Shown in pieces: positions 1,731-61,995 of a stretch of DNA of 64,000 nucleotides (its first letter is position 1; every line of letters starts with the position of its first letter). The position numbers and the translations under genes were made by a program. The notes under the pieces were generated by a model. The model had not been told where the DNA came from, searched no databases, and saw only the letters and a list, made by a program, of their open reading frames with translations. Source of the DNA: Patescibacteria group bacterium (GTDB lineage: Bacteria > Patescibacteriota > Minisyncoccia > Minisyncoccales > PEYH01); contig JAHIFQ010000015.1 in assembly GCA_018900835.1 (NCBI GenBank), positions 50,301 through 114,300 on the forward strand, read 5' to 3'.

Positions 1731-3053
1731 ATGCGCCTTAGGCGCATTTTGGTTGATAAAAATGCGCAAATATGCCAGAATTTAATCAATATGGATGATT
1801 TGTTTGATAAAAATTTAGAAGAGGCGTTAAGGAAAGATGCCCCTTTGGCAGACCGCATTAGGCCTGAGGATTTTGACTATTTTTTCGGCCAAGAAGAATT
1901 GGTAGGGGAAAGCAGTCCTTTGCGCCGGGCTATTCAAAATGATAATCTAACTTCTTTGATATTTTGGGGACCACCGGGTTCGGGCAAGACAACTTTGGCA
2001 AGGATAATCGCTAAAAAAACAAAAGCAGATTTTGTGAAATTTTCTGCTGTTGTTACTGGGATAAATGATGTTAGGAAGGCGATTGAAAAAGCTAGAGAAA
2101 GGTTAAAATTTAAAAGACAAAAAACAATCCTTTTTATTGACGAGATTCATCGTTTTAATAAAGCTCAACAGGACGCTTTTTTACCTTATGTAGAGGATGG
2201 CACGATTGTTTTGATAGGAGCTACAACAGAAAACCCTTCTTTTTCAGTGATATCACCGCTCTTATCCCGTTCAGCGGTCTATGTGTTAAAGCCATTATCA
2301 AGAGATGCGTTGAAAAGTATTTTATTGCAGGCCTTGAAAAATAAAGATAGGGGATTCGGCAATTCCGAGATAAAAGTTGAAGAAAAGGCGTTTGAACGAT
2401 TGATTAATTTTGCTGACGGAGATGCGCGGGTTGGATTAAATGGCTTGGAGTTTATAGTTAACCATTTGAAAGCGGAAAAAAAGAATATTATAAAAGCGGA
2501 TGAGGTTTCTGAAATATTAAAAGAACATGCTCTGCGTTATGACAAAAAAGGAGAAGAGCATTACAATATAATCTCTGCGTTTATAAAAAGTATGAGGGAT
2601 TCTGACCCAAATGGCGCGCTTTACTGGTTGGCGAGAATGGTGGAGTCAGGGGAAGACCCAAGATTTATTGCGCGTAGAATGGTAATTTTTGCTTCCGAAG
2701 ATATTGGCAACGCTGACCCGCAGGCGATACAAATGGCAACAGCTATTGCTCACGCTGTTGAATATGTGGGTTTTCCTGAAGCACAAATTAATTTAGCCCA
2801 TGGAGTGACTTATCTTGCCACTGCTCCTAAAAGCAATGCTTCTTACTCTGCTTTGTTAGAAGCAAAAGAAGATGCTAAAAAAGGCGCTTTTGGGGTACCT
2901 CTGTATTTGCGAAATGCAGTCACTAATTTGATGAAAAAAATTGGGTATGGAAAGGGTTATCAATATGCCCACAATGTACCGGGCAAAAAGCCAGAACAAA
3001 CTCATTTCCCAGAAGAAATAGGGGAAAAACAATATTACCATCCAGAAAAATAG
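1731..3053 (+). CDS. rarA: Replication-associated recombination protein A (AAA+ ATPase RarA/MgsA)
   Basis: Walker A GPPGSGKTTLARIIA, Walker B ILFIDEIHRFNK. ~440 aa with MgsA C-terminal domain. Confidence 0.85.
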   Translation: MRLRRILVDKNAQICQNLINMDDLFDKNLEEALRKDAPLADRIRPEDFDYFFGQEELVGESSPLRRAIQNDNLTSLIFWGPPGSGKTTLARIIAKKTKADFVKFSAVVTGINDVRKAIEKARERLKFKRQKTILFIDEIHRFNKAQQDAFLPYVEDGTIVLIGATTENPSFSVISPLLSRSAVYVLKPLSRDALKSILLQALKNKDRGFGNSEIKVEEKAFERLINFADGDARVGLNGLEFIVNHLKAEKKNIIKADEVSEILKEHALRYDKKGEEHYNIISAFIKSMRDSDPNGALYWLARMVESGEDPRFIARRMVIFASEDIGNADPQAIQMATAIAHAVEYVGFPEAQINLAHGVTYLATAPKSNASYSALLEAKEDAKKGAFGVPLYLRNAVTNLMKKIGYGKGYQYAHNVPGKKPEQTHFPEEIGEKQYYHPEK

Positions 3054-32144: not shown

Positions 32145-32167
32145 CCGCCGAGATCGTTTCTCGGCGG
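32145..32167. repeat. REP palindrome (family 1: GCCGAGA-TCGTT-TCTCGGC), copy flanking RAYT 3' side
   Basis: CCGCCGAGATCGTTTCTCGGCGG. Same element at 32701-32719, 32928-32946 (reverse orientation) and 58837-58855. Confidence 0.85.
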
Positions 32168-32184: not shown

Positions 32185-32904
32185 CTATTCTATTACTACC
32201 TCTTCAAAATCAACTAATTCTTTTTTAAACTTAAGCCAATTATTAACAAATTCTCGGCAACCATCTGCACCTTCCATTATTTTCTCTAAAAATTCCCTAT
32301 TTGTCAAAGAAGGGAAATTTTTCTTTCCTAAATAATCTGGATAACTTGACCATTTATATTTATTTTCTAAAAAATCAATTGCCGCATCTATGTTTTCTAT
32401 TTGCACTCCTTTGTTTTTCCATTCCAGAATTATTAATGACATTGGATTTGTGTGTATATAAACAAACACAGTTTCTAATCGCTCTTCTGTCTCGATACGA
32501 ACTATCCTGTATCTTCCTTGAAAAAGATGTCCATTCCTCTCATATTTTTTATTATAGTAACCACTATAACCTGCTCCAATCTTATGCATTAATTTGCTGA
32601 TTCCGTTATCGCAAGTTTGTTTTATTAACAAATGAATATGATTTGGCATTAGGCAAAATGCCAAAATTTCTACCAAAAGTTTCCTTTTCTTTCTATTCTC
32701 GCCGAGATCGTTTCTCGGCAGAGATAGCGGAGATAAGTTTCTTCTATAATCTCTGGATACTGGATTTTCGTCGTTAAATTCAAAAAGGTTGTTTATCATT
32801 CGAAAATAATCTTTATCGCCACGAAAAAGGTCTATCCCCTCTATTGTTCGGGTGACGATATGATATATTTCTCCATTTACTATTTCAGGTCTTTTTGATG
32901 GCAT
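32185..32904 (-). mobile_element. REP-associated tyrosine transposase (RAYT; IS200/IS605 TnpA Y1 HuH family)
   Basis: HuH motif LMPNHIHLLI and catalytic Tyr region YSGYYNKKYERNGHLFQGRY. Flanked by REP palindromes. Carries one REP in-frame (LPRNDLGE). Confidence 0.75.
32701..32719. repeat. REP family 1 copy inside RAYT coding sequence (in-frame)
   Basis: GCCGAGATCGTTTCTCGGC. Confidence 0.85.
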
Positions 32905-32919
32905 TCATCTATTATTGAT

Positions 32920-35334
32920 TCAATCTTGCCGAGAAACGATCTCGGCAGATTGTTTTTTATCTTTTAAGCTTATCAGTGTTTTGACCACAGCGTCAGGGCT
33001 TAAAGACATTGATTCAATCCCCTCTTTTGCCAAAAATTCCGCGAAATCAGGAAATGTAGACGGCGCTTCTCCGCAAATGCCCACATATTTTTTCCTTGCC
33101 AAACATTTTTTTATCACTATTTTCAATGACTCCTTCACTGCCTCGTTTCTCTCGTCAGCAATATGCGCAATTTGGGCATTGTCCCTATCTATTCCCATTG
33201 TAAGCTGGGTCAAATCATTGGACCCAATGCTCATTCCGTCAAAAATATCCAAAAACTTATCAGCTAAAATTACATTAGACGGAATTTCACACATCACATA
33301 TATTTTCAATCCGTCCTTTTCTTGCTTAAGACCGAATTTCTTCATCAACTCAATTACCCTTGCTCCTTCTTCTGGAGTTCGGCAAAAAGGAACCATCACT
33401 GAAACATTTTTTAATCCGAATATATCTCTTACTCTTTTGATTGCTTCGCATTCCATTCCAAATGCAGGCGCATATTTTTCGTCATAATACCGCGAAGCGC
33501 CTCTCCAGCCAATCATTGGATTTTCTTCTATTGGCTCGTACTCTTTACCACCTATCAATTGAGCATACTCGTTTGTTTTAAAATCAGAAAATCTAACTAT
33601 CGCTTCTTGCGGATAAAAAGCAGCTGCAATTTGAGCAATGCCTTCTGCCAACTCCTTTACAAAATATTCCTTTTTGTCCTTATGCTCTACGGTTAATTCT
33701 TCAATTTGCTTTTTTAATTTTCCATCCCTTATTTTATTGAAATTATATAGCGCCATTGGGTGACATTTTATTTTCTGTGCGATAATAAATTCTTCTCGCG
33801 CCAAACCAACTCCATTTACTGGCAAAAAAGATGTCTTGAAAGCTAATTCTGGCGCTCCGATGTTGACGCTAATTTTTATTTTCGTTTTAGGCACTTTTTT
33901 AAGATTGTATACTTTGACTTCATAAGGAATCTTGCCAGCATAAATCCTGCCATTTAATCCTTGGGTGCAGTCAATTGTTATGTATTGTCCGTTCTTTAAA
34001 ATCTTAGTAGCTTTTTCTGTTCCCACAATACAAGGTATTCCTAATTCTCTGCTTACTATCGCTGCGTGTGCGGTCTTAGAGCCCTCGTCTGTTACAATTG
34101 CTGATGCCATTTGCATAACTGGAACCCAATCAGGGTCTGTCATCTTAGTAACCAGAATTTCTCCTTTCTTAAATTCGCTCATCTTCTTTACATCAGAAAC
34201 AATCCGCACTTTTCCTTCGCCGATTTTATCTCCAATAGCAATACCCTTGAGTATTGGCTCTACTTTGGCATGAATTGAATATTCTGTGTATGTTGTTTTC
34301 GTTTCCGAGCGATGAACTGTTTCTGGCCTTGATTGGACAATAAAAAGTTTTCCTGTTTTTCCATCTTTCGCCCATTCCAAATCCTGTGGCATCCATTTTT
34401 TATTTAACCCGGAATAATAATCTTCAATCGTGCATGCCCATTTCGCCAAAGTAACAATATCATTATCAGATAAAGAAAATTTTAATTGCTCTTCCTTTTT
34501 TACAGGAATTTCTTTTAGTCCGCCATTAACACTATAAATTAGTTTCTTCGTTTTCCTGCCAAGATTTTTGACAATTATGGATTTGTATCCTTCTTTGAGA
34601 GTTGGCTTGAAAACGAAAAATTCGTCAGGAGTTATTTGTCCTTTTACAATCATTTCTCCCACTCCCCAGATAGAATTAATTAATACCACATTAGGAAATC
34701 CTGTTTCCGTGTCCAATGTGAACATTACACCTGAAGAGCCGATTCCGGAATTGACCATTTTCTGCACACCAACGGATAAGGCAATCTGCAAATGGTCAAA
34801 ACCCTTCTCCTGCCTGTAAGCAATTGCTCTGTCTGTGAAAAGCGATGAAATACATTTTTTGACTGCTCTTAAAACCTCTTGTTCTCCTTTAATATTTAAA
34901 TATGTTTCCTGCTGACCAGCAAAACTGGCTGTTGGCAAGTCCTCTGCAGTTGCAGAGCTTCGCACAGCAACAACAACATCTTTCTCTTTGTATATTTGGC
35001 AGAGTTTTCTGTAATACTTAATAATCTTCCTTTCCAATTTTTTGGGGAGTTCCGCTCCTAAAATCAATTCCCGAGATTTCTTGCCAGTTTCCTGCAAGCT
35101 CTTGATATTATTGGGTTTAAAGTTTTTGAAAACTTTTTTTAATTGGTCATAAACGCCGGTCTCTTTTAAAAAGAGAAAATAGGCATGAGAGGTGAGCGCA
35201 AACCCATTCGGAATATTTATTCCTTCAGGAACCAAATGTCTAAACATTTCTCCAAGAGAAGCATTTTTTCCTCCGACTAAAGGAACATCCTTGATTCCAA
35301 CATTTTTAAACCAAACAATATATTTTTTAAGCAT
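32920..35334 (-). CDS. ppsA: Phosphoenolpyruvate synthase (PEP-utilising enzyme)
   Basis: N-terminal VGGKNASLGEM, phospho-His region TSHAAIVSRELGIPCIVG, C-terminal PEP-utilisers TIM barrel. 804 aa. Confidence 0.8.
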   Translation of the reverse strand: MLKKYIVWFKNVGIKDVPLVGGKNASLGEMFRHLVPEGINIPNGFALTSHAYFLFLKETGVYDQLKKVFKNFKPNNIKSLQETGKKSRELILGAELPKKLERKIIKYYRKLCQIYKEKDVVVAVRSSATAEDLPTASFAGQQETYLNIKGEQEVLRAVKKCISSLFTDRAIAYRQEKGFDHLQIALSVGVQKMVNSGIGSSGVMFTLDTETGFPNVVLINSIWGVGEMIVKGQITPDEFFVFKPTLKEGYKSIIVKNLGRKTKKLIYSVNGGLKEIPVKKEEQLKFSLSDNDIVTLAKWACTIEDYYSGLNKKWMPQDLEWAKDGKTGKLFIVQSRPETVHRSETKTTYTEYSIHAKVEPILKGIAIGDKIGEGKVRIVSDVKKMSEFKKGEILVTKMTDPDWVPVMQMASAIVTDEGSKTAHAAIVSRELGIPCIVGTEKATKILKNGQYITIDCTQGLNGRIYAGKIPYEVKVYNLKKVPKTKIKISVNIGAPELAFKTSFLPVNGVGLAREEFIIAQKIKCHPMALYNFNKIRDGKLKKQIEELTVEHKDKKEYFVKELAEGIAQIAAAFYPQEAIVRFSDFKTNEYAQLIGGKEYEPIEENPMIGWRGASRYYDEKYAPAFGMECEAIKRVRDIFGLKNVSVMVPFCRTPEEGARVIELMKKFGLKQEKDGLKIYVMCEIPSNVILADKFLDIFDGMSIGSNDLTQLTMGIDRDNAQIAHIADERNEAVKESLKIVIKKCLARKKYVGICGEAPSTFPDFAEFLAKEGIESMSLSPDAVVKTLISLKDKKQSAEIVSRQD
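32928..32946. repeat. REP family 1 copy (reverse orientation) forming the last codons of ppsA (…SAEIVSRQD*)
   Basis: GCCGAGAAACGATCTCGGC. ppsA stop codon lies 6 nt beyond. Confidence 0.85.
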
Positions 35335-54533: not shown

Positions 54534-57500
54534 TTAGCCCGATTTGCGGAACTCGCAAATGTTTTTAAAGTCGCAGGATTGGCATTGCCAACCCGGAGCT
54601 GCCTTGAAATCGCTATTCTCAATCTTTTCAATTTTACATAAGACCTCTTGCTTGAATTTCTCTCTCTCTCGCTCATTGCTTTGAAAGGTAATTTTTTCGT
54701 TGTTCTGAAGATAATAATAACTTAAATATTCCGGCATTTTGCCAAAAATCTGTTCTCCTGCCAGTTGGTAAATAAGCAATTGTTCTTTCTCATCTTTCGT
54801 GAGCTTATCTTTGCCTTTGCCTGTTTTGTAATCAATTATTTCAAGTTCTCCATCAGGTAATTCATCAACTCTGTCTATTTTGCCTTTTATGCTATTATCC
54901 TTAATTTTCAAGAAAAAATCCAATTCTAAACATGGCTTACTATTCAAAGATAAAATCTTTGGCTGTTCTTTGAGAAATTTTTCCAAAAAATCTTTTAAAG
55001 TATCTTTCCCTAATTTAAAATATTCCTGCTTCTGTTTTTTATCCTCATACCACTCATCAATCCAATTTCTTTCATAAAAAACAATCATCTTCTTAAATTG
55101 CTCGGAAAAATCAATCTCTTTCTTAGCGCTTGGTTGAGCCGAGTTTTTGAAAAGCCCTTCTTGATTTTCTTCTTTGTTTTCAAGATAATCTCCTAAAAAT
55201 TGGCGTAAAGTATTGTGTATTGTTTTTCCAAAACTGAAAAATGCTGTGCCGATTCGCGGAATCTTTAAAATGTGGGAAAACTTGTACTGTAGGGGACATT
55301 TATCAAAAGCAGCGAATTGAGAATAGGAAAAATGCGGAGGGATATTATATTTTGTTCTTCTCTTCTCTTTTGTTTCTACTTGTCCTGATTCTAATGATAC
55401 TTTCTCTCCAGTTTGCTCTTCTGGCTTTTTAAAATTTATCTCTTCTAAAAATCTAGATAATTTTTTCTTTCGCGCTCCTCCATAATCATCCGCCGAGGTA
55501 AAGAACAGCCCTTTTTTCGCCCGAGTCATTGCTACATAAAACAATCTTCTTTCTTCCTGTAAATGGACATCTCCGCTCGGCACAATCTCTTTCACCAATT
55601 TACATGGAATTTCTATCGCCTCCTTTCTTTCATTGGTTGGAAATCTCCTATCCACAAGATTGATTATAAAAACGAATTTGAATTCAAGTCCTTTGGCAGA
55701 ATGTATGGTCATTATTTTCACCGCATCAGGACCCTTCTCTATATCCATTTCCAACGACCCGGCTTCCCCTGATTCAAGCTCCATATTCATTGCCATCATA
55801 AAATTGGCAAGGGTTGGCTCTGGGTTGCTTTCTTCAAATGATTTTATCTTTTTATAAAATTGGGTTATCAAATTAATATCCCTCTCGCTCTCCTGTTTTA
55901 CCATTTCCTTTAAATATCCTGAATCGTTCAAAAAAGCGAGAAAAACATCCCCTATGCTTTTCTCCCTTATCAATTTAGAATGTTTTTTAATCAAATCCAT
56001 TAGAAATCCAATTTTCTGTACTGTGTTTTTTGAAATCCCTGACACCAAAGGCAAATCCTGCAATGTTTCGTATGTTGATTGGGTTTTTTTCTTGCTGAAT
56101 TGATTTATTTTAACCAATTCTTCAATCCCCACTTCAAACAATGGCAAACTCAAAAGCCGATTCAAGGCAGAACTTTCATGATAATTATCAAGTAATCTGA
56201 AATAGGAAACAATGTCTAAAATAACTGGCTGGGAGTAAAGTCCTTTTGAAGCCAAAAATTCGTATGGAATTCTTTGTCTTTCTAATTCTTTGAAAAATGG
56301 AGTTGCCGAATCATTCGCCCTTACCAACACAACAAAATCAGAAAAACTTGTCTCTTTGTCTTTACGCATAATTTCAGTAATTTTCTTTGCAACGCCCTCT
56401 GCTTCTCTTCCAAGGGTTGCGAAATGAAGATGCTCAATCAGTCCCGCTGAATCATCTTTGGCTCTTAACTTTTTATCTATCTTTTTAAACGAGGAAAGCT
56501 CAATACCTTTTTCCTTTGCCTCAACAGCAATTTCTTTATCTTGATTCAATTGGTATTCAAGCCGATTTGGATTATTCAACTGGATAAAATTATACGCTAA
56601 ATCAAGAATATTCTGGGTTGAACGATAATTCTCCACAAGGATTATTTCTTTTGACTCTGGAAAGTCCTTTTTGAATTGCAGGACATTATTGAAAGACGCA
56701 CCCATGAAGCGAAACACACTTTGGTCATCGTCTGCGCAAACAGTAAGATTATTTTTCGGCTTAGCCAAAATTTTAATCAACTCATATTGCGCCCAATTAG
56801 TATCTTGAAACTCATCAATCAAAATATATTTAAATTGGCTTCTATATTTTTTCAAAATAGTTGGCCTCTCCTTAAATAATTTCAAGCAATAATTTATCAA
56901 ATCCCCGAAGTCCAAAGCATTGTTTTCCAAAAGCAAGCGTTGGTAAATATGATAAGCGTTAGCCAGTTCGCTTATTCTCTGCTGTTCTATTTCTATTTCT
57001 TTTTGGGATTTTTTTTCTTTTTTATCCATTACTCTACTCCCGAAAATACCATCATCAAAATTCCTCTTAATATCATCTGCGTATTGGAGATAATCCTCTG
57101 GAAAAATAGCTTCGTCTTTGCACTTGGCAAAATGATTAATCAAAGAATGAATAAATTTTGAAGGATTCCCAAGAGGACGGTAATAATCAAGATTAAATTT
57201 ATCTAAATTTTGCCTCACTAAAACCCAGCCCCCTGTTTGGTCAAGCAATTTGAAATTAGTAGGCAAGCCAATGTCTAATCCATGCTCTTTTAAAACTCTT
57301 TCGCAAAAAGAATGGAAAGTGGAAATCCAAAGGTCTAAATAACCAAAAGGCAAAAGCCGGTCAACTCTTTCCTCCATCTCGCCTGCTGCTTTTTCAGTGA
57401 ATGACAGCGCTAAAATTTCCTGTGATTCTGCTAATTTGTTCTCTATTAAATTGGCTATGCAACGAGTGATTACTGTGGTCTTGCCAGTTCCTGCTCCTGC

Positions 57501-57608
57501 AACAATTAAAAGAGGCCCTTTGTTATGCAAAACCGCGTCTTTCTGCTCTGGGTTCAATTGCTCAAGATATTTTGATTTTTTGTTTTCAAGAGGCATATTA
57601 TTGCTCAA
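54534..57608 (-). CDS. UvrD/PcrA-like SF1 helicase fused to C-terminal Cas4/AddB-like PD-(D/E)XK Fe-S nuclease
   Basis: Walker A AGAGTGKTTVITR, YILIDEFQDTN, helicase motifs through VMTIHSAKGLEF. C-terminal EIIDYKTGK, QLLIYQ, C-x18-CQSC-x5-C. Confidence 0.7.
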   Translation of the reverse strand: MSNNMPLENKKSKYLEQLNPEQKDAVLHNKGPLLIVAGAGTGKTTVITRCIANLIENKLAESQEILALSFTEKAAGEMEERVDRLLPFGYLDLWISTFHSFCERVLKEHGLDIGLPTNFKLLDQTGGWVLVRQNLDKFNLDYYRPLGNPSKFIHSLINHFAKCKDEAIFPEDYLQYADDIKRNFDDGIFGSRVMDKKEKKSQKEIEIEQQRISELANAYHIYQRLLLENNALDFGDLINYCLKLFKERPTILKKYRSQFKYILIDEFQDTNWAQYELIKILAKPKNNLTVCADDDQSVFRFMGASFNNVLQFKKDFPESKEIILVENYRSTQNILDLAYNFIQLNNPNRLEYQLNQDKEIAVEAKEKGIELSSFKKIDKKLRAKDDSAGLIEHLHFATLGREAEGVAKKITEIMRKDKETSFSDFVVLVRANDSATPFFKELERQRIPYEFLASKGLYSQPVILDIVSYFRLLDNYHESSALNRLLSLPLFEVGIEELVKINQFSKKKTQSTYETLQDLPLVSGISKNTVQKIGFLMDLIKKHSKLIREKSIGDVFLAFLNDSGYLKEMVKQESERDINLITQFYKKIKSFEESNPEPTLANFMMAMNMELESGEAGSLEMDIEKGPDAVKIMTIHSAKGLEFKFVFIINLVDRRFPTNERKEAIEIPCKLVKEIVPSGDVHLQEERRLFYVAMTRAKKGLFFTSADDYGGARKKKLSRFLEEINFKKPEEQTGEKVSLESGQVETKEKRRTKYNIPPHFSYSQFAAFDKCPLQYKFSHILKIPRIGTAFFSFGKTIHNTLRQFLGDYLENKEENQEGLFKNSAQPSAKKEIDFSEQFKKMIVFYERNWIDEWYEDKKQKQEYFKLGKDTLKDFLEKFLKEQPKILSLNSKPCLELDFFLKIKDNSIKGKIDRVDELPDGELEIIDYKTGKGKDKLTKDEKEQLLIYQLAGEQIFGKMPEYLSYYYLQNNEKITFQSNEREREKFKQEVLCKIEKIENSDFKAAPGWQCQSCDFKNICEFRKSG

Positions 57609-58020: not shown

Positions 58021-59220
58021 TTAAATTCTTTTGCTTTTTATTTTATCCCTTATCCCCTCAAGCTTGGTTTCCAAAAAGAAAAGATTGTGTATTGTTAAAA
58101 GTTTTCCAGCCAACATCTCTTTTGCCCTGAAAAGGAAATTAATTTGGGCGATTGTATATTTTTGGCAAACAGGACATTCACAGTTCTTGTCAATTGGTTC
58201 AAACTTATTCTTCAGCTTTCCAGCATCAAGATTCAAATATCCTTTTGAAGTCATTGCTGTACCGTGCCTTGCAATTCTGGTTGGTAAGGCGCAATCAAAT
58301 AAATCAATTCCCAATTTGACAATTTCTTCCAAAACATCCAAGTCCCCTATGCCCAAAAGATGATGAGGTCTCTGCCAGTCAATGTCCTCATTGACCCATG
58401 ATATTGTTTTGTACATATCTTTTTTGCTTTTGCCCAATGCTCCGCCAATAGCAATTCCGAAAACAGGCAAATCATTTACAAATTTGGTTGATTGTTCGCG
58501 TAAGTCCTTAAAAACTCCGCCCTGAATAATACCAAAAATCTGTTGATTAGATTTATTGCCTCCCACGCCTGAGTTGGAAGCTGTTTTTAAAAACCTTTTA
58601 AACCATTGATGGCTTATTTCCATTTCTTTTTCCGCTTCTTTACGGCTATCCATTGGACTGCCACAAACATCTAAAAGATAAATAAAATCAGCCCCCAATT
58701 GCTTTTGAATTTTAAAAGAAAGTTCTGGCGTAAGCAAAATTTCCCTTCCATCTCTTGGGGATTTAAACCTTGCTCCTCTCTGGCTGATTTTCAAAAGATT
58801 TTTTCCTTTTTTGCGTAAAGCAGAATTTTCTTTCTGCCGAGAAACGATCTCGGCGGATTTTTCTTGAGGAAAAATAGAACCGATTTTCCCCAAACCAAAC
58901 TCGCTTCCTTTGCCTAAAGAAAAAACCTGAAAACCGCCGGAATCAGTAAAAATCGGTTTATCAAAATTAAAAAATTTGTGGAGCCCGCCAATCTGCTCAA
59001 CCTCGTTCGCCCTATCCAAGTCTAAAAAATGGAATGTATTAGTAATTTGGCATTGGGCTTTTGTTTGCTGTGTTTCCCCTGAACTCAAACCGCCTTTAAT
59101 CACGCCCAAAGTTGCCACTGGAATAAATGCTGGTGTTTTTATCTTGCCGTGGGGCGTAATAATCTCTCCAATCCGCGCCCTGCTCTTTTTTGATTTCTCC
59201 TGTATTTCAAATTTGAACAT
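58021..59220 (-). CDS. tgt: Queuine tRNA-ribosyltransferase, with in-frame REP insertion
   Basis: TPHGKIKTPAFIPVAT, DSGGFQVFSLG, LLGIGDLD, zinc site CECPVCQ. ~30-aa insertion containing SAEIVSRQ. Confidence 0.8.
   Translation of the reverse strand: MFKFEIQEKSKKSRARIGEIITPHGKIKTPAFIPVATLGVIKGGLSSGETQQTKAQCQITNTFHFLDLDRANEVEQIGGLHKFFNFDKPIFTDSGGFQVFSLGKGSEFGLGKIGSIFPQEKSAEIVSRQKENSALRKKGKNLLKISQRGARFKSPRDGREILLTPELSFKIQKQLGADFIYLLDVCGSPMDSRKEAEKEMEISHQWFKRFLKTASNSGVGGNKSNQQIFGIIQGGVFKDLREQSTKFVNDLPVFGIAIGGALGKSKKDMYKTISWVNEDIDWQRPHHLLGIGDLDVLEEIVKLGIDLFDCALPTRIARHGTAMTSKGYLNLDAGKLKNKFEPIDKNCECPVCQKYTIAQINFLFRAKEMLAGKLLTIHNLFFLETKLEGIRDKIKSKRI
58837..58855. repeat. REP family 1 copy in-frame inside tgt
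   Basis: GCCGAGAAACGATCTCGGC encodes AEIVSRQ on the minus strand. Confidence 0.85.
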
Positions 59221-59264
59221 AGAACTATTGACAAATTAAATCTCATGATATAGGATAATAATAT

Positions 59265-59480
59265 CACAGCGGGAATCGATATGGGAGTTGCGGCGCTCGG
59301 AAGAACAGCGCTTGCGGGGTAGGCACTCGCTTAGCCGAATCTGGCAGGGGTTACGGCACCTCTTAAATAAAGCTGGCACACACAAGGAGCCAATGAGGCA
59401 CCACACCGAGTCGGAGAGTATCCGGCCAACACCCATACCCGCTGCATCCGCGTCACCCTTTACAGGTTGGCGCGTTTTCT
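59265..59480 (+). ncRNA. GC-rich structured element, candidate ncRNA of unknown class
   Basis: ~58% GC. Stems GCGCU-CGGAAGAAC-AGCGC, CGCGTCACC…GGTTGGCGCG then TTTTCTTTT. Upstream TTGACA…TATAGG. ORF 59288-59536 judged spurious. Confidence 0.3.
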
Positions 59481-59487
59481 TTTATCT

Positions 59488-59520
59488 GAATTTCTTTTTT
59501 TCTAAATCTCTGACTTCTTT
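59488..59520. repeat. 33-bp direct repeat, copy 1 (duplicate of the last 11 codons of metalloprotease gene 59730-60107)
   Basis: GAATTTCTTTTTTTCTAAATCTCTGACTTCTTT, identical to 59746-59778. Followed by CAT (relic start codon on minus strand). Confidence 0.85.
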
Positions 59521-59587
59521 CTTAAACATTTTTTAAATGTGGATAACTGTTATTGACAAAAAACTGATTAATGATAAGGTATAAATA

Positions 59588-59690
59588 GTGCTTGTGGGCG
59601 TAAGCCCCGTTCAGCTAAGGTTTTCCTAAGCTGAAGGCAAGCACTACGAAGAAGCTGATACACATCGGCTTTTTTGTTTTTTATTGATCC
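59588..59690 (+). ncRNA. Compact candidate sRNA with intrinsic terminator
   Basis: Closing stem AGTGCTTG/CAAGCACT enclosing GGGC-GUAA-GCCC (GNRA tetraloop) and an 11-bp hairpin TTCAGCTAAGG/CCTAAGCTGAA. Terminator AGCTGAT-ACAC-ATCGGCT+TTTTTTGTTTTTT. Upstream TTGACA (59553) and TATAAAT (59580) with non-canonical spacing. Confidence 0.4.
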
Positions 59691-59729
59691 TCTATCCCCT
59701 TGTCCGCTAATTGTCTGCATAATATAAAA

Positions 59730-60107
59730 TTATTTGAATTTCTTTTTTTCTAAATCTCTGACTTCTTTTTCACTCATCCCGAAATGGTGGGCAATCTCGT
59801 GCCAAACAGTTCGCTTAACTTTTTCTTTTATTTCCTCTGGGGTTTTGGCAACTGTTTCAATACTACCCTGAAACAATGTAATCTTATCAGGCAAGACATT
59901 AGCGTAAAATGCTCCTCTTTTGGTTTGCGGAATACCCTGATACAAACCGAAAAGCAAACCGCCTGTTGGCACTCTCGCCTGCCTTAACTGCTCTGGAGAT
60001 GGCCAGTCCTCAACCAAAATATCCACATTTTTCATTTTGTCTCTGAATTTCTCTGGAATTTCCGCTATCCCCTGCCTCACTAATTCTTCAAAATCTTCCT
60101 GCCTCAT
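59730..60107 (-). CDS. Minimal zinc metallopeptidase (Zincin_1/DUF1025-like, HExxH)
   Basis: C-terminal HEIAHHFGM. ~125 aa. Confidence 0.55.
   Translation of the reverse strand: MRQEDFEELVRQGIAEIPEKFRDKMKNVDILVEDWPSPEQLRQARVPTGGLLFGLYQGIPQTKRGAFYANVLPDKITLFQGSIETVAKTPEEIKEKVKRTVWHEIAHHFGMSEKEVRDLEKKKFK
59746..59778. repeat. 33-bp direct repeat, copy 2 (genuine 3' end of metalloprotease CDS)
   Basis: Identical to 59488-59520. Confidence 0.85.
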
Positions 60108-60577: not shown

Positions 60578-61369
60578 TCATTCTATCGTTTTATCAAAAA
60601 TATCCAAATAATCAATATTTTTGTCATCCAAAAGAAAGGGTTTTAATTTTTTCTTAAAATCCTTGATGTTTAATTTTACTTTTCTTTTATAAACATCAGT
60701 TAATTTTTCAAACAATTCTTTCTCTGTTTTAACTTTCATCTCAGAAAAAAGTTTTGGATGAGGTTTAACCCTATAAGACAGGAGCCAAGCAATATCGTAA
60801 AAATCTCTTGGCTGAATATCTTTTCTAGTGAGGGCGGCTCGAATCTTTTGAGATAAAAGAAAGCTTTTTGTGTTTGTAATAACAGGCCGAAGAAAGCCAA
60901 ATCTTTTTAAAATAACGACTTCCGTCTCTGGTCTGGTCTTTGGTGTAGTGTAATTAATTTTAACATTTAATTTTTCATTCTTATCGGTGGTAATTCCTAA
61001 ATCAAAAAGCAATTTGGGGAATTTAAAACTCCCAATTCCAGAATTATTTGTTTTCTTAAAATTGAATTCCGCTTCAAGATTCTCCTTTTTGAACTCCGAG
61101 GATATTTCCTTGAACAGCGACCTTATTTTCTCGTGAGAAAGACCTAAATTATCAAAATCTAAATCCTCGGAAAATCTATCTATATTCCTTAAAATTCTTA
61201 AACTAGTTTCTCCAATAAAAGAGAGCTTTTCCGATTTTGGCTGGTTATAGAGATGATAAATCGTCTTACATTGGAGATATTCTCTAATTAAAGCCCTTTT
61301 CTTTGTCTCGGGAACCTCTAAGCTTTTGCCTTCTTCTAAAATTGTTTGCCACAAAAATTCACTAATCAT
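60578..61369 (-). CDS. abiEii: AbiEii/AbiGii-family nucleotidyltransferase toxin (type IV TA / abortive infection)
   Basis: FIGETSLRILRNIDRFSEDLDF matches the GGTAL..R.S.DLD AbiEii motif. Confidence 0.6.
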   Translation of the reverse strand: MISEFLWQTILEEGKSLEVPETKKRALIREYLQCKTIYHLYNQPKSEKLSFIGETSLRILRNIDRFSEDLDFDNLGLSHEKIRSLFKEISSEFKKENLEAEFNFKKTNNSGIGSFKFPKLLFDLGITTDKNEKLNVKINYTTPKTRPETEVVILKRFGFLRPVITNTKSFLLSQKIRAALTRKDIQPRDFYDIAWLLSYRVKPHPKLFSEMKVKTEKELFEKLTDVYKRKVKLNIKDFKKKLKPFLLDDKNIDYLDIFDKTIE

Positions 61370-61995
61370 TTTTTATATTCTTTAAATAAGTTTTCCATAG
61401 ATAAATGGAATTTTTTGTTATTTGAAGAAACTAATTTTTGCCACTTCTTTAAATCGCTCCATTTGAAATCCTCGCCAATATCCAGACGCATTTCCTTAAA
61501 ACAATTCTTCGGATCAAAACCCTTTCCGAAGCTTCGTAGATATAAAAAATCAAATAGCGCTTTCTCCGGGACCGCTATCCTATAAGAGTATGGGGAATCA
61601 GCGTCTACCTTTCTATGACCAAAGAAAAGTTCTGGTTTGATATGACGATAAATAAATAAACCGTAGTTCTCCGTTTTGATTGTTAATGTTTTCTTAAGAG
61701 AGATAGAAGTGGTGGCAAAAGGAATATCTGGAATAATCCCATAATAATTTAAAGCGGTTTCGCAAGAGATATAAGAAGGAAAGAAAAAATCAGCCAAAAC
61801 TAAAACATCTTTTATCTGATAATCGCTAAATTTATAAATCCCTCTTTTCAATCTTTCCAGATGCCCTCTTTTTGTCCAGACGCTCAATTGGAAAATTATG
61901 GTTCTCCTATTTTCATTGGCGAACCATTTAAAAATATCATCTAATCTAAAAATAGGATAATCTTGTAATTTTTTCTTTAATTCAAAATAGGTCAT
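61366..61995 (-). CDS. abiEi: AbiEi-family antitoxin-like protein (N-terminal wHTH)
   Basis: 4-nt overlap upstream of AbiEii gene. ~200 aa with N-terminal basic wHTH-like region. Confidence 0.45.
   Translation of the reverse strand: MTYFELKKKLQDYPIFRLDDIFKWFANENRRTIIFQLSVWTKRGHLERLKRGIYKFSDYQIKDVLVLADFFFPSYISCETALNYYGIIPDIPFATTSISLKKTLTIKTENYGLFIYRHIKPELFFGHRKVDADSPYSYRIAVPEKALFDFLYLRSFGKGFDPKNCFKEMRLDIGEDFKWSDLKKWQKLVSSNNKKFHLSMENLFKEYKK

Follow-up and report, generated by a model that had tools for sequence, protein, structure and literature searches.

An in-frame copy of a REP-like hairpin in a Patescibacteria tgt gene and its probable relationship to a RAYT-like Y1 transposase gene

Repetitive extragenic palindromic (REP) hairpins are GC-rich imperfect palindromes of 20–40 nt. 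Their foot is preceded on the 5′ side by a conserved GT(A/G)G or CGTC head (PMC2817692, PMC3733652), and the REP-associated tyrosine transposases (RAYTs) have an NP(L/V)(R/K)xG motif beside the catalytic Tyr (PMC2817692). RAYT genes are domesticated: they stand once in a genome and do not copy themselves. Y1/HUH relatives such as IS608, ISDra2 and the E. coli RAYT act on single-stranded DNA hairpins (PMC6006769, PMC3479197). A different kind of repeat, the Rickettsia palindromic elements (RPEs), is described in the part of PMC10969869 that reports Ogata et al. (2000, 2002) as ~100–150 bp long, with a conserved peptide and no known cognate transposase. Here we analysed a stretch of 64,000 nucleotides from a Patescibacteria group bacterium (contig JAHIFQ010000015.1), which we call the window, where a 19-nt palindrome lies within tgt, the gene for tRNA-guanine(34) transglycosylase. 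We consider it probable that this palindrome is a dispersed cognate hairpin of a RAYT-like Y1/HUH gene located 26 kb from tgt, and that it persists as a translated in-frame insertion.

The palindrome GCCGAGAAACGATCTCGGC has the form GCCGAGA-AACGA-TCTCGGC, with a 7-bp stem and a 5-nt loop, and on the + strand it stands in the context ...ttctttctGCCGAGAAACGATCTCGGCggattttt... An earlier note on this DNA had recognised it at 58837–58855; the palindrome is real, but its coordinates are shifted by 1 nt, to 58836–58854. The two features at this locus are:

58021–59220, minus strand: tgt, tRNA-guanine(34) transglycosylase, an intact open reading frame (ORF) of 399 amino acids with Pfam TGT, TIGR00430 and PDB Tgt matches
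58836–58854, no strand assigned: hairpin core GCCGAGA-AACGA-TCTCGGC, with an extended stem at 58833–58857 (TCT...GGA)

In the frame of tgt, on the minus strand, it forms the codons GCC GAG ATC GTT TCT CGG C, which give A123, E124, I125, V126, S127, R128 and the first base of Q129 and confirm the peptide AEIVSRQ that the same note had derived. None of the six frames of the 19-mer contains a stop codon, a property that is a prerequisite and not a signal; its chance probability is estimated at ~0.2. The exact 19-mer is present in four copies in the window (starting at 32147, 32701, 32928 and 58836), and 100 dinucleotide-preserving shuffles of the window yielded 0 copies, even when three mismatches were permitted. 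The 19-nt core extends to 25–29 nt with the consensus aatcT-GCCGAGA-tcgtt-TCTCGGC-Agatt. The folding energies of the tgt hairpin as RNA are −13.7 kcal/mol (sense) and −17.6 kcal/mol (antisense), within an overall range of −13.7 to −20.5 kcal/mol for the hairpin folds. We looked for longer similarity around the four copies and found only 2–4 stem-extending bases and a T-rich/A-rich context in common; a larger miniature inverted-repeat transposable element (MITE) around them was dropped as a candidate on that ground. The pair GAAAAATCC / GAAAATTCT that flanks the tgt copy is a candidate target-site duplication, suggestive at best, which we do not claim.

The other three copies of the 19-mer surround and enter the RAYT-like gene:

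32185–32904, minus strand: RAYT-like Y1 (HUH) transposase gene, 239 amino acids, Pfam Y1_Tnp, with the hairpin of the tgt copy as its cognate hairpin
32147–32165, no strand assigned: exact 19-mer, 20 nt past the stop codon of the RAYT-like gene, with an orthologous copy in the related locus L026
32701–32719, no strand assigned: exact 19-mer within the RAYT-like ORF, read P-R-N-D-L-G at residues ~63–68
32928–32946, no strand assigned: exact 19-mer, 24 nt before the RAYT-like start and inverted with respect to the copy at 32147

The identity of the 19-mers places the tgt palindrome in the same hairpin family as the copies of this separate locus, just as had been proposed. The RAYT-like protein matches Pfam Y1_Tnp (PF01797) with E = 1.1e-13 and 51.8 bits (cutoff 23), and both its HUH motif (H89-I-H91) and the nucleophilic Y149 are invariant in 40 homologues. 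A PDB search with the single sequence returned only a spurious methyltransferase match, and one with a 40-sequence profile only a weak match, to ISDra2 TnpA (E = 0.03). The upstream hairpin also reaches into a second protein: pps (32920–35334, minus strand), identified by Pfam PPDK_N, PEP-utilizers and PEP-utilizers_C, ends in ...QSAEIVSRQD and the stop codon, its last codons consisting of the hairpin, in the frame that tgt uses. The pps ORF of JAHITK (L026) stops before the hairpin.

The arrangement around the RAYT-like gene recurs in other genomes. The JAHITK locus (L026) has the same three-hairpin layout, with the internal copy at the same place, and L048 and L049 each have one hairpin sequence just upstream of the start, inside the gene (residues ~59–61) and just downstream of the stop; for L050 we found the internal and the downstream copy only. 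The internal copies of L048, L049 and L050 occupy the same place as that of the window. The hairpins differ between genomes around a common core, CGAGAAC.GTTCTCG:

RAYT-locus hairpin of L048: GCGAGAA-atg-TTCTCGC
RAYT-locus hairpin of L049: AGTCGAGAAC-a-GTTCTCGACT
RAYT-locus hairpin of L050: AATGGAACGAGAAC-a-GTTCTCGTTCCATT

In the window, L026, L048 and L049 the hairpins are genome-specific and the two flanking copies are inverted around the gene. We studied the internal copy in the 120 nearest homologues of the RAYT-like protein, which are 227–280 amino acids long and 55–100% identical and of which the named ones are Patescibacteria-type. In all of the 70 homologues listed in the alignment, a short, variable peptide separates the N-terminal strand-helix from the HUH strand. 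Among the 72 homologues in which this peptide reads xRxxLx, the end residues obey the pairing rule expected of a hairpin (P..G, A..A, T..V, S..D/E) in 59, where 18.7 are expected and 10,000 shuffles gave at most 32, and many of the other 48 have hairpin-type peptides in another frame, for example EKRSR or ENxSRxI. This covariation indicates that the conserved entity is the nucleic-acid hairpin and not the peptide, and that the hairpin co-evolves with the gene; apparently, the family always has the cognate hairpin within its own coding sequence. We met with no internal cognate hairpin of this sort in the RAYT literature consulted, but absence from a limited library is not proof of novelty.

To delimit the distribution of the hairpin we scanned one genome per species (185,579 species) for the exact 19-mer. 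It is multi-copy only in metagenome-assembled genomes (MAGs) of uncultured organisms with small genomes, Patescibacteria-type plus one labelled 'Pacearchaeota'. JAHITK has six exact copies plus four variant-loop copies in the four loci covered, JAHIEL has three, a MAG labelled Saccharibacteria two, and the one labelled 'Pacearchaeota' three, which are terminator-like. Single matches in high-GC genomes are at about the chance level, with ~4 estimated in 2 x 596 Gb.

The gene order around tgt (Zincin_1, tgt, PP-binding, UvrD) is kept in related genomes, and this conserved synteny identifies their tgt genes as orthologues. L035, with the closest Tgt (84% identity), has a loop colinear with that of the window, without a gap, and its hairpin GCCGAGAACACTTCTCGGC (GCCGAGA-ACACT-TCTCGGC) shares the 14 stem bases and differs in the loop. 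The same hairpin is repeated in frame in truB (2423–2441; truB 1799–2773, minus strand) on the same 3.9-kb contig, where it adds ~5–6 residues (LPRTLLG) to a variable loop when compared with three TruB orthologues. Like tgt, truB is a tRNA-modification gene. L003 (82% Tgt identity) carries tccAGCGAGAACCGTTCTCGCTgga at the same tgt site, after the same GAAAAATCC, and a second copy, identical also in the 9 nt to either side, lies in an intergenic region 1.1 kb downstream; with respect to the window hairpin, two stem pairs are altered, on both sides. Finally, the tgt of JAHITK (L001, 77%) contains two exact window 19-mers as an inverted doublet with GGGTT between them, read AEIVSRRVAEKRSRQ. Judging from these sequences, in four genomes the intragenic tgt copy equals the resident variant of the family, which is compatible with a site that was entered repeatedly as well as with a single old insertion that has been kept homogenised with its family.

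The pair L045 and L046 captures an insertion into the loop. Their tgt genes are 92.8% nucleotide-identical, and L045 has two clean in-frame insertions. The first, of 33 nt (CCCGCCCGAAGCCATTGCATCGTTGCGGGCGGG), lies at the loop and converts NGVNQKQ/KGKNL into NGVNQKQ-PARSHCIVAGG-KGKNL. The second, of 69 nt (GGPARNASPARNRYSVSGGRSDAGG), is a related GC-rich palindromic sequence and lies between EKIGG and LHKFF; it belongs to a different family (GCCCGC/GCGGGC) that is also found in the tgt loop of L030/L031. The pair thus represents a filled and an empty site for a palindrome other than that of the window, and is direct evidence of in-frame insertion into the loop. Unrelated palindromes lie in the tgt loop of L030/L031, L036 and L052, and the palindromes in the loops of L051 and L052 are all weak or unrelated and are not repeated elsewhere on these short contigs. 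Because of the L045/L046 insertion and the further unrelated palindromes in relatives, we conclude that palindromes have repeatedly landed in the tgt loop, or have at least repeatedly survived there. Other insertions are present in these genomes: intein domains occur in the UvrD-like helicase beside tgt in L001 (12107–16294) and L046 (3436–5999) and in DnaB in L048 (10827–13511). The inteins of the relatives add to the evidence that selfish elements often insert in frame in these genomes. The UvrD-like ORF of the window (54534–57608) encodes 1024 amino acids.

Recurrence at one site could also be explained if the hairpin were kept for a local role, for example in terminating antisense transcription, in mRNA stability, as an RNase site or as a translational pause, with the repeat as a recruited module. 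Congruent with this, on the + strand (antisense to tgt) the hairpin is followed by TTTTTCTTGA and matches the intrinsic-terminator pattern, hairpins are found at the same site in the window, L035, L003 and L001 with pairing kept despite sequence differences, and unrelated palindromes occupy the same loop in L030, L036, L045 and L052. However, the terminator scan gave 3 sites versus 1.6 expected, which is not significant, and the close relatives L004, L032–L034, L040, L046 and L047 have no comparable GC-rich hairpin there. Moreover, pairing is kept as each copy equals the repeat family of its genome, which makes local selection unnecessary, and the same repeat is also found in truB, pps and intergenic sites. 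We therefore regard a local role as unlikely.

A second question is how much of the Tgt loop is hairpin. The HMMER match to Zymomonas mobilis Tgt splits into query residues 4–103 and 141–397, which are contiguous in the target, and places residues 104–140 (37 amino acids) between Z. mobilis residues 112 and 113. The big insertion that had been noted relative to canonical Tgt is therefore present, with 37 residues instead of ~30. Its parts are:

58801–58911, minus strand: residues 104–140, absent from solved Tgt structures (HMMER split; low predicted local distance difference test score, pLDDT)
58867–58911, minus strand: K104–P118 (KGSEFGLGKIGSIFP), conserved lineage-wide in 119 homologues and not hairpin-derived
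58828–58854, minus strand: A123–E131 (AEIVSRQKE), the ~27-nt surplus, from codon comparison with L004 and DNA alignments with L004 and L047
58801–58815, minus strand: R136–K140 (RKKGK), the lineage-wide basic end of the insertion (consensus ...KKGKNL)

The 119 nearest Tgt homologues (46–82% identity; those named are labelled Patescibacteria, Parcubacteria, Harrisonbacteria, Pacebacteria, Colwellbacteria or Minisyncoccia) all contain GKGxEFGLGKIGSIFP and ...KKGKNL, although most of them are palindrome-free. G105, G109, G111, K112 and F117 show no or almost no variation; only the centre between the two motifs varies, also in length. From the catalytic-Asp motif to the F.SPR anchor there are 22 residues in Z. 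mobilis, 59 in the window and a mode of 48 in the homologues from the candidate phyla radiation (CPR; 33/119, range 44–92). The 37 extra residues can be divided into ~26 that are lineage-wide and ~11 that are restricted to the window and a few relatives. In pairwise DNA alignments, the window tgt is longer than palindrome-free L004 by 27 nt and than L047 by 33 nt, and the loop reads P-Q-E-K-S-[AEIVSRQKE]-N-S-A-L-R-K-K-G in the window versus P-E-E-I-S-S-S-Q-V-R-E-K-G in L004. L047 has a possible half-hairpin remnant (ATCTTCGGAAAGAAAG), for which the alignment is ambiguous. The comparison indicates that the hairpin accounts for only ~9–11 residues (27–33 nt) in the length-variable centre of the loop.

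These results bear on the idea that the REP element made the whole ~30–37-residue insertion, with the palindrome as its core. The palindrome does lie near the middle of the segment that canonical Tgt is missing, but K104–P118 and R136–K140 are kept in 119/119 homologues, palindrome-free relatives are merely 27–33 nt shorter, and the other three window copies share with the tgt copy just the 19-mer and 2–4 flanking bases. We judge this idea very unlikely and, as far as the homologue alignment goes, already refuted. The earlier note, which had described a ~30-residue insertion built around the palindrome and had named conservation of the segment in CPR Tgt without the palindrome as the result that would speak against it, is thus only partly supported, because such conservation was found for the flanks and not for the centre.

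The insertion apparently leaves the enzyme unharmed. The ORF matches Pfam TGT (E = 2.9e-108), the NCBIfam equivalog TIGR00430 (354.6 bits; cutoff 306.75) and, in a PDB search, Z. mobilis TGT (E ~ 1e-68). Its AlphaFold2 model has a mean pLDDT of 91.7 and a predicted template modelling score of 0.90, and superposes on Z. mobilis TGT (Foldseek) with a target-normalised TM score of 0.91–0.92 and a root mean square deviation of 1.7 Å; the window Tgt has the TIM-barrel and zinc-subdomain fold of bacterial Tgt. D93, D184 and D309 align to the catalytic/substrate Asp residues D102, D156 and D280 of Z. mobilis, and C347, C349, C352 and H378 align to the zinc ligands CxCxxC...H. The Asp and zinc-site residues are invariant or nearly so among 58 aligned Tgt homologues. 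As to whether the spacing of these sites is preserved, a check that had been proposed together with the insertion, the residues are all there and the D184–D309 and D309–C347 spacings are within one residue of Z. mobilis, while D93–D184 exceeds it by exactly 37 residues. The sole low-confidence stretch of the model is residues 111–140 (10-residue blocks of pLDDT 57, 55 and 62; every block outside 101–140 is at least 88), and it covers the hairpin-coded residues, as befits a permissive loop. From sequence and model together, the enzyme appears intact, with catalytic residues, zinc site and fold all kept. The Tgt clade has F97 in place of Z. mobilis Tyr106, GGALG at G259–G263 versus Z. mobilis GGLAVG, one residue less in the substrate-pocket loop, and C186, the equivalent of Z. 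mobilis C158, is kept; its substrate preference may differ from that of model bacterial Tgt.

A further alternative is that the hairpin-coded peptide is selected as a protein feature, for example as an extra tRNA-contacting helix, and that the DNA palindrome is a by-product. AlphaFold2 draws a tentative helix at 123–135, over the palindrome-coded residues, and the basic loop (RKKGK) comes after the active-site strand with D93. That helix, however, has a pLDDT of just 55–62, and the orthologous peptides differ (AEIVSRQ, AENTSRQ, SENRSRW, doublet) while the stems are perfect and genome-matched. Peptide selection cannot explain the 19-nt identity with non-coding copies and with copies in another frame (PRNDLG), and we consider this alternative highly improbable, slightly more so than a wholly REP-made insertion. 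Least credible of all is an assembly or sequencing artefact or a decaying tgt pseudogene, since, although the source is a MAG and repeats can mis-assemble, the identical Tgt protein was recovered on two contigs and in several source databases (P0007 on four contigs), relatives from other samples have homologous insertions, and the ORF is intact, with complete catalytic residues and a confident model.

We thus favour a dispersed hairpin of the RAYT-like gene that persists in translated form, and propose the following history. A hairpin with a few flanking bases (27–33 nt, a multiple of three) would have entered the low-complexity centre of a surface loop, itself an older lineage-wide insertion of ~26 residues in Patescibacteria Tgt. 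The copy would persist, and would be translated as A123–R128 and neighbours, because it has no stop in six frames, its length preserves the reading frame and the loop is tolerant of extra residues; the 9–11 residues would be near-neutral for Tgt. The RAYT-like Y1/HUH protein would move, disperse or homogenise the copies. Purifying selection in gene-dense genomes would then remove all copies except those with a length divisible by three at gene ends or in permissive loops.

Several points weigh against this history. The RAYT-like protein scores 49 bits on its best NCBIfam match, REP_Tyr_transpos (NF047646), below the cutoff of 80. Near the catalytic Tyr it reads Y149-I-H-T-N-P-M-S-L-I, without the full NP(L/V)(R/K)xG: N153 and P154 are conserved in the family (consensus YIHTNPVAII) and (L/V)(R/K)xG is missing. 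The window hairpins show no GTAG/CGTC head; their flanks, 5′ (A)ATC(T/C) and 3′ AGAT, are mutually complementary and extend the stem. Copy number in the 64-kb window is low in comparison with classical REPs, at four, three of them at the transposase locus. A neighbor-joining tree of Tgt (loop masked, unbootstrapped) places the hairpin-bearing genes patchily, and such a tree does not distinguish an ancestral insertion with homogenisation and losses from repeated insertion. The borders of the insertion are indeterminate within A/G-rich low-complexity sequence. Hairpins kept at one site in several lineages could mean a local function, and the neutrality of the hairpin-coded residues for Tgt is assumed. 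Binding, cutting or moving of the hairpin by the RAYT-like protein is presumed by analogy, because Y1/HUH enzymes act on single-stranded DNA hairpins.

A wider reading, which we put forward tentatively and hold to be possible but rather doubtful, is that Parcubacteria-type CPR have a distinct REP/RAYT-like system whose hairpin, not confined to intergenic DNA, regularly becomes part of proteins as short in-frame segments (tgt, truB, pps) and whose transposase-like gene apparently always has a third, internal hairpin. Intragenic copies might then be actively kept identical to the current variant through Y1-mediated replacement or conversion, the internal hairpin might be functional as a third recognition site or in autoregulation, and the tgt loop might be a preferred target.

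The neighbourhood of tgt holds further features. A block upstream of tgt (59521–59716) is 86–89% conserved in L046, L030, L031 and L045 and 73% in L034. Within it, on the strand opposite to tgt, 59588–59690 (+) combines a very stable branched structure of ~57 nt with a terminator hairpin and T-run behind it (−46.4 kcal/mol, z = −7.1) and is preceded by a promoter-like TTGACA-N17-TATAAA at ~59553–59586. It is possibly an undescribed small RNA. Next to it, 59262–59495 (+) is a GC-rich block of ~230 nt with a closing stem CAGCGGG...CCCGCUG, a terminator-like 3′ hairpin and a fold z of −2.4, preceded by a promoter-like site at 59228–59256; Rfam gives no match for it, and all the related loci lack a counterpart. 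Zincin_1 and tgt abut in relatives such as L003 and L047, and for this reason the block looks like an insertion. Rfam returned one tRNA only for the whole window at the gathering threshold and nothing for 59150–59800 at E ≤ 1, so that the GC-rich blocks between tgt and Zincin_1 match no Rfam family. A 48-nt direct repeat, 90% identical, lies on either side of the 59521–59716 block (59482–59529 and 59730–59777); it duplicates the 3′ end of the Zincin_1 gene and may be a rearrangement or insertion footprint. Beside the Zincin_1–tgt block, 60578–61995 (minus strand) looks like an AbiEii/AbiEi-type toxin-antitoxin pair, a call based on where the AbiEii gene lies in L001 and L004.

With respect to the insertion in Tgt, these results correct an over-reading, as most of it is an old feature of the lineage and not the product of a mobile element. 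What deserves interest is a translated mobile hairpin that tracks its family at an orthologous site and stems from a transposase-like family that itself contains the hairpin. The results also document a REP/RAYT-like hairpin family in Patescibacteria, of which we found no description in the searchable literature; no paper combining RAYT or REPIN with CPR or Parcubacteria was found there, which, given its limited extent, is not proof of novelty. An orthologous tgt site with different, genome-matched hairpins in four genomes, together with the covariation in the transposase gene, offers a natural test system for asking whether Y1/HUH proteins homogenise or re-target hairpins in vivo and what share mobile hairpins have in the loop variability of streamlined genomes. 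For annotation, the hairpin-coded peptides AEIVSR, AEKRSR, PRNDLG and xRTVLx provide a recognisable signature in CPR proteomes.

Among known systems, Correia, ERIC and BOX MITEs (PMC10969869) resemble the hairpin in being small non-autonomous repeats that are occasionally inside ORFs, but they are longer and have terminal inverted repeats, target-site duplications and DDE transposases, none of which were seen here. The TnpA proteins of the IS200/IS605 group (IS608, ISDra2) share the Y1_Tnp superfamily with the RAYT-like protein, and recognition of single-stranded DNA hairpins is the expected mode. In contrast to those elements, the hairpin copies are not the ends of a gene-carrying mobile unit, the gene is present once in the window and once per related locus, there is no tnpB, and the hairpin would move or be maintained on its own.

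The RPEs, as that part of PMC10969869 presents them, are likewise palindromic repeats in frame in unrelated housekeeping genes of small gene-dense genomes, translated at fold-tolerant sites. Here too the same repeat is in frame in several unrelated genes and at permissive sites: in tgt (window, L035, L003 and L001), where the site is length-variable with a pLDDT of 55–62, in truB (L035), at the C-terminus of pps and in the RAYT-like gene. The differences are that the RPEs are five times longer than the 27–33 nt found here, that the peptide varies with frame and genome (AEIVSR, PRNDLG, AENTSR, LPRTLLG), and that a cognate Y1 gene is present.

The closest resemblance is to the REP/REPIN-RAYT systems of Gammaproteobacteria (E. 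coli yafM/BIMEs, Pseudomonas REPINs and Stenotrophomonas; Nunvar et al. 2010, PMC2817692; Bertels and Rainey 2011, PMC3116915), with which the locus shares a short GC-rich dispersed hairpin, a Y1/HUH gene between two inverted hairpin copies, a hairpin that co-varies with the transposase across genomes, and inverted doublets, here in the JAHITK tgt and in L018. REPs, however, are extragenic almost by definition, whereas the tgt copy lies deep in an ORF and several copies are translated (three of the four window copies overlap ORFs, namely tgt, the RAYT-like gene and the pps C-terminus, as do both copies in L035, in tgt and truB). REPs usually exceed 100 copies per genome; in the 64 kb of the window the number is four, which is low as far as this stretch can show. 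The RAYT-like protein, for its part, differs from a RAYT in falling below the NCBIfam cutoff, in lacking NP(L/V)(R/K)xG, in its ~239 amino acids with a C-terminal extension, in the third cognate hairpin inside its own ORF and in its Patescibacteria host. By analogy, then, the element would work like a REP/RAYT system, with a hairpin repeat, a flanked Y1 gene and co-variation of the two, and its consequence for the protein resembles that of the RPEs.

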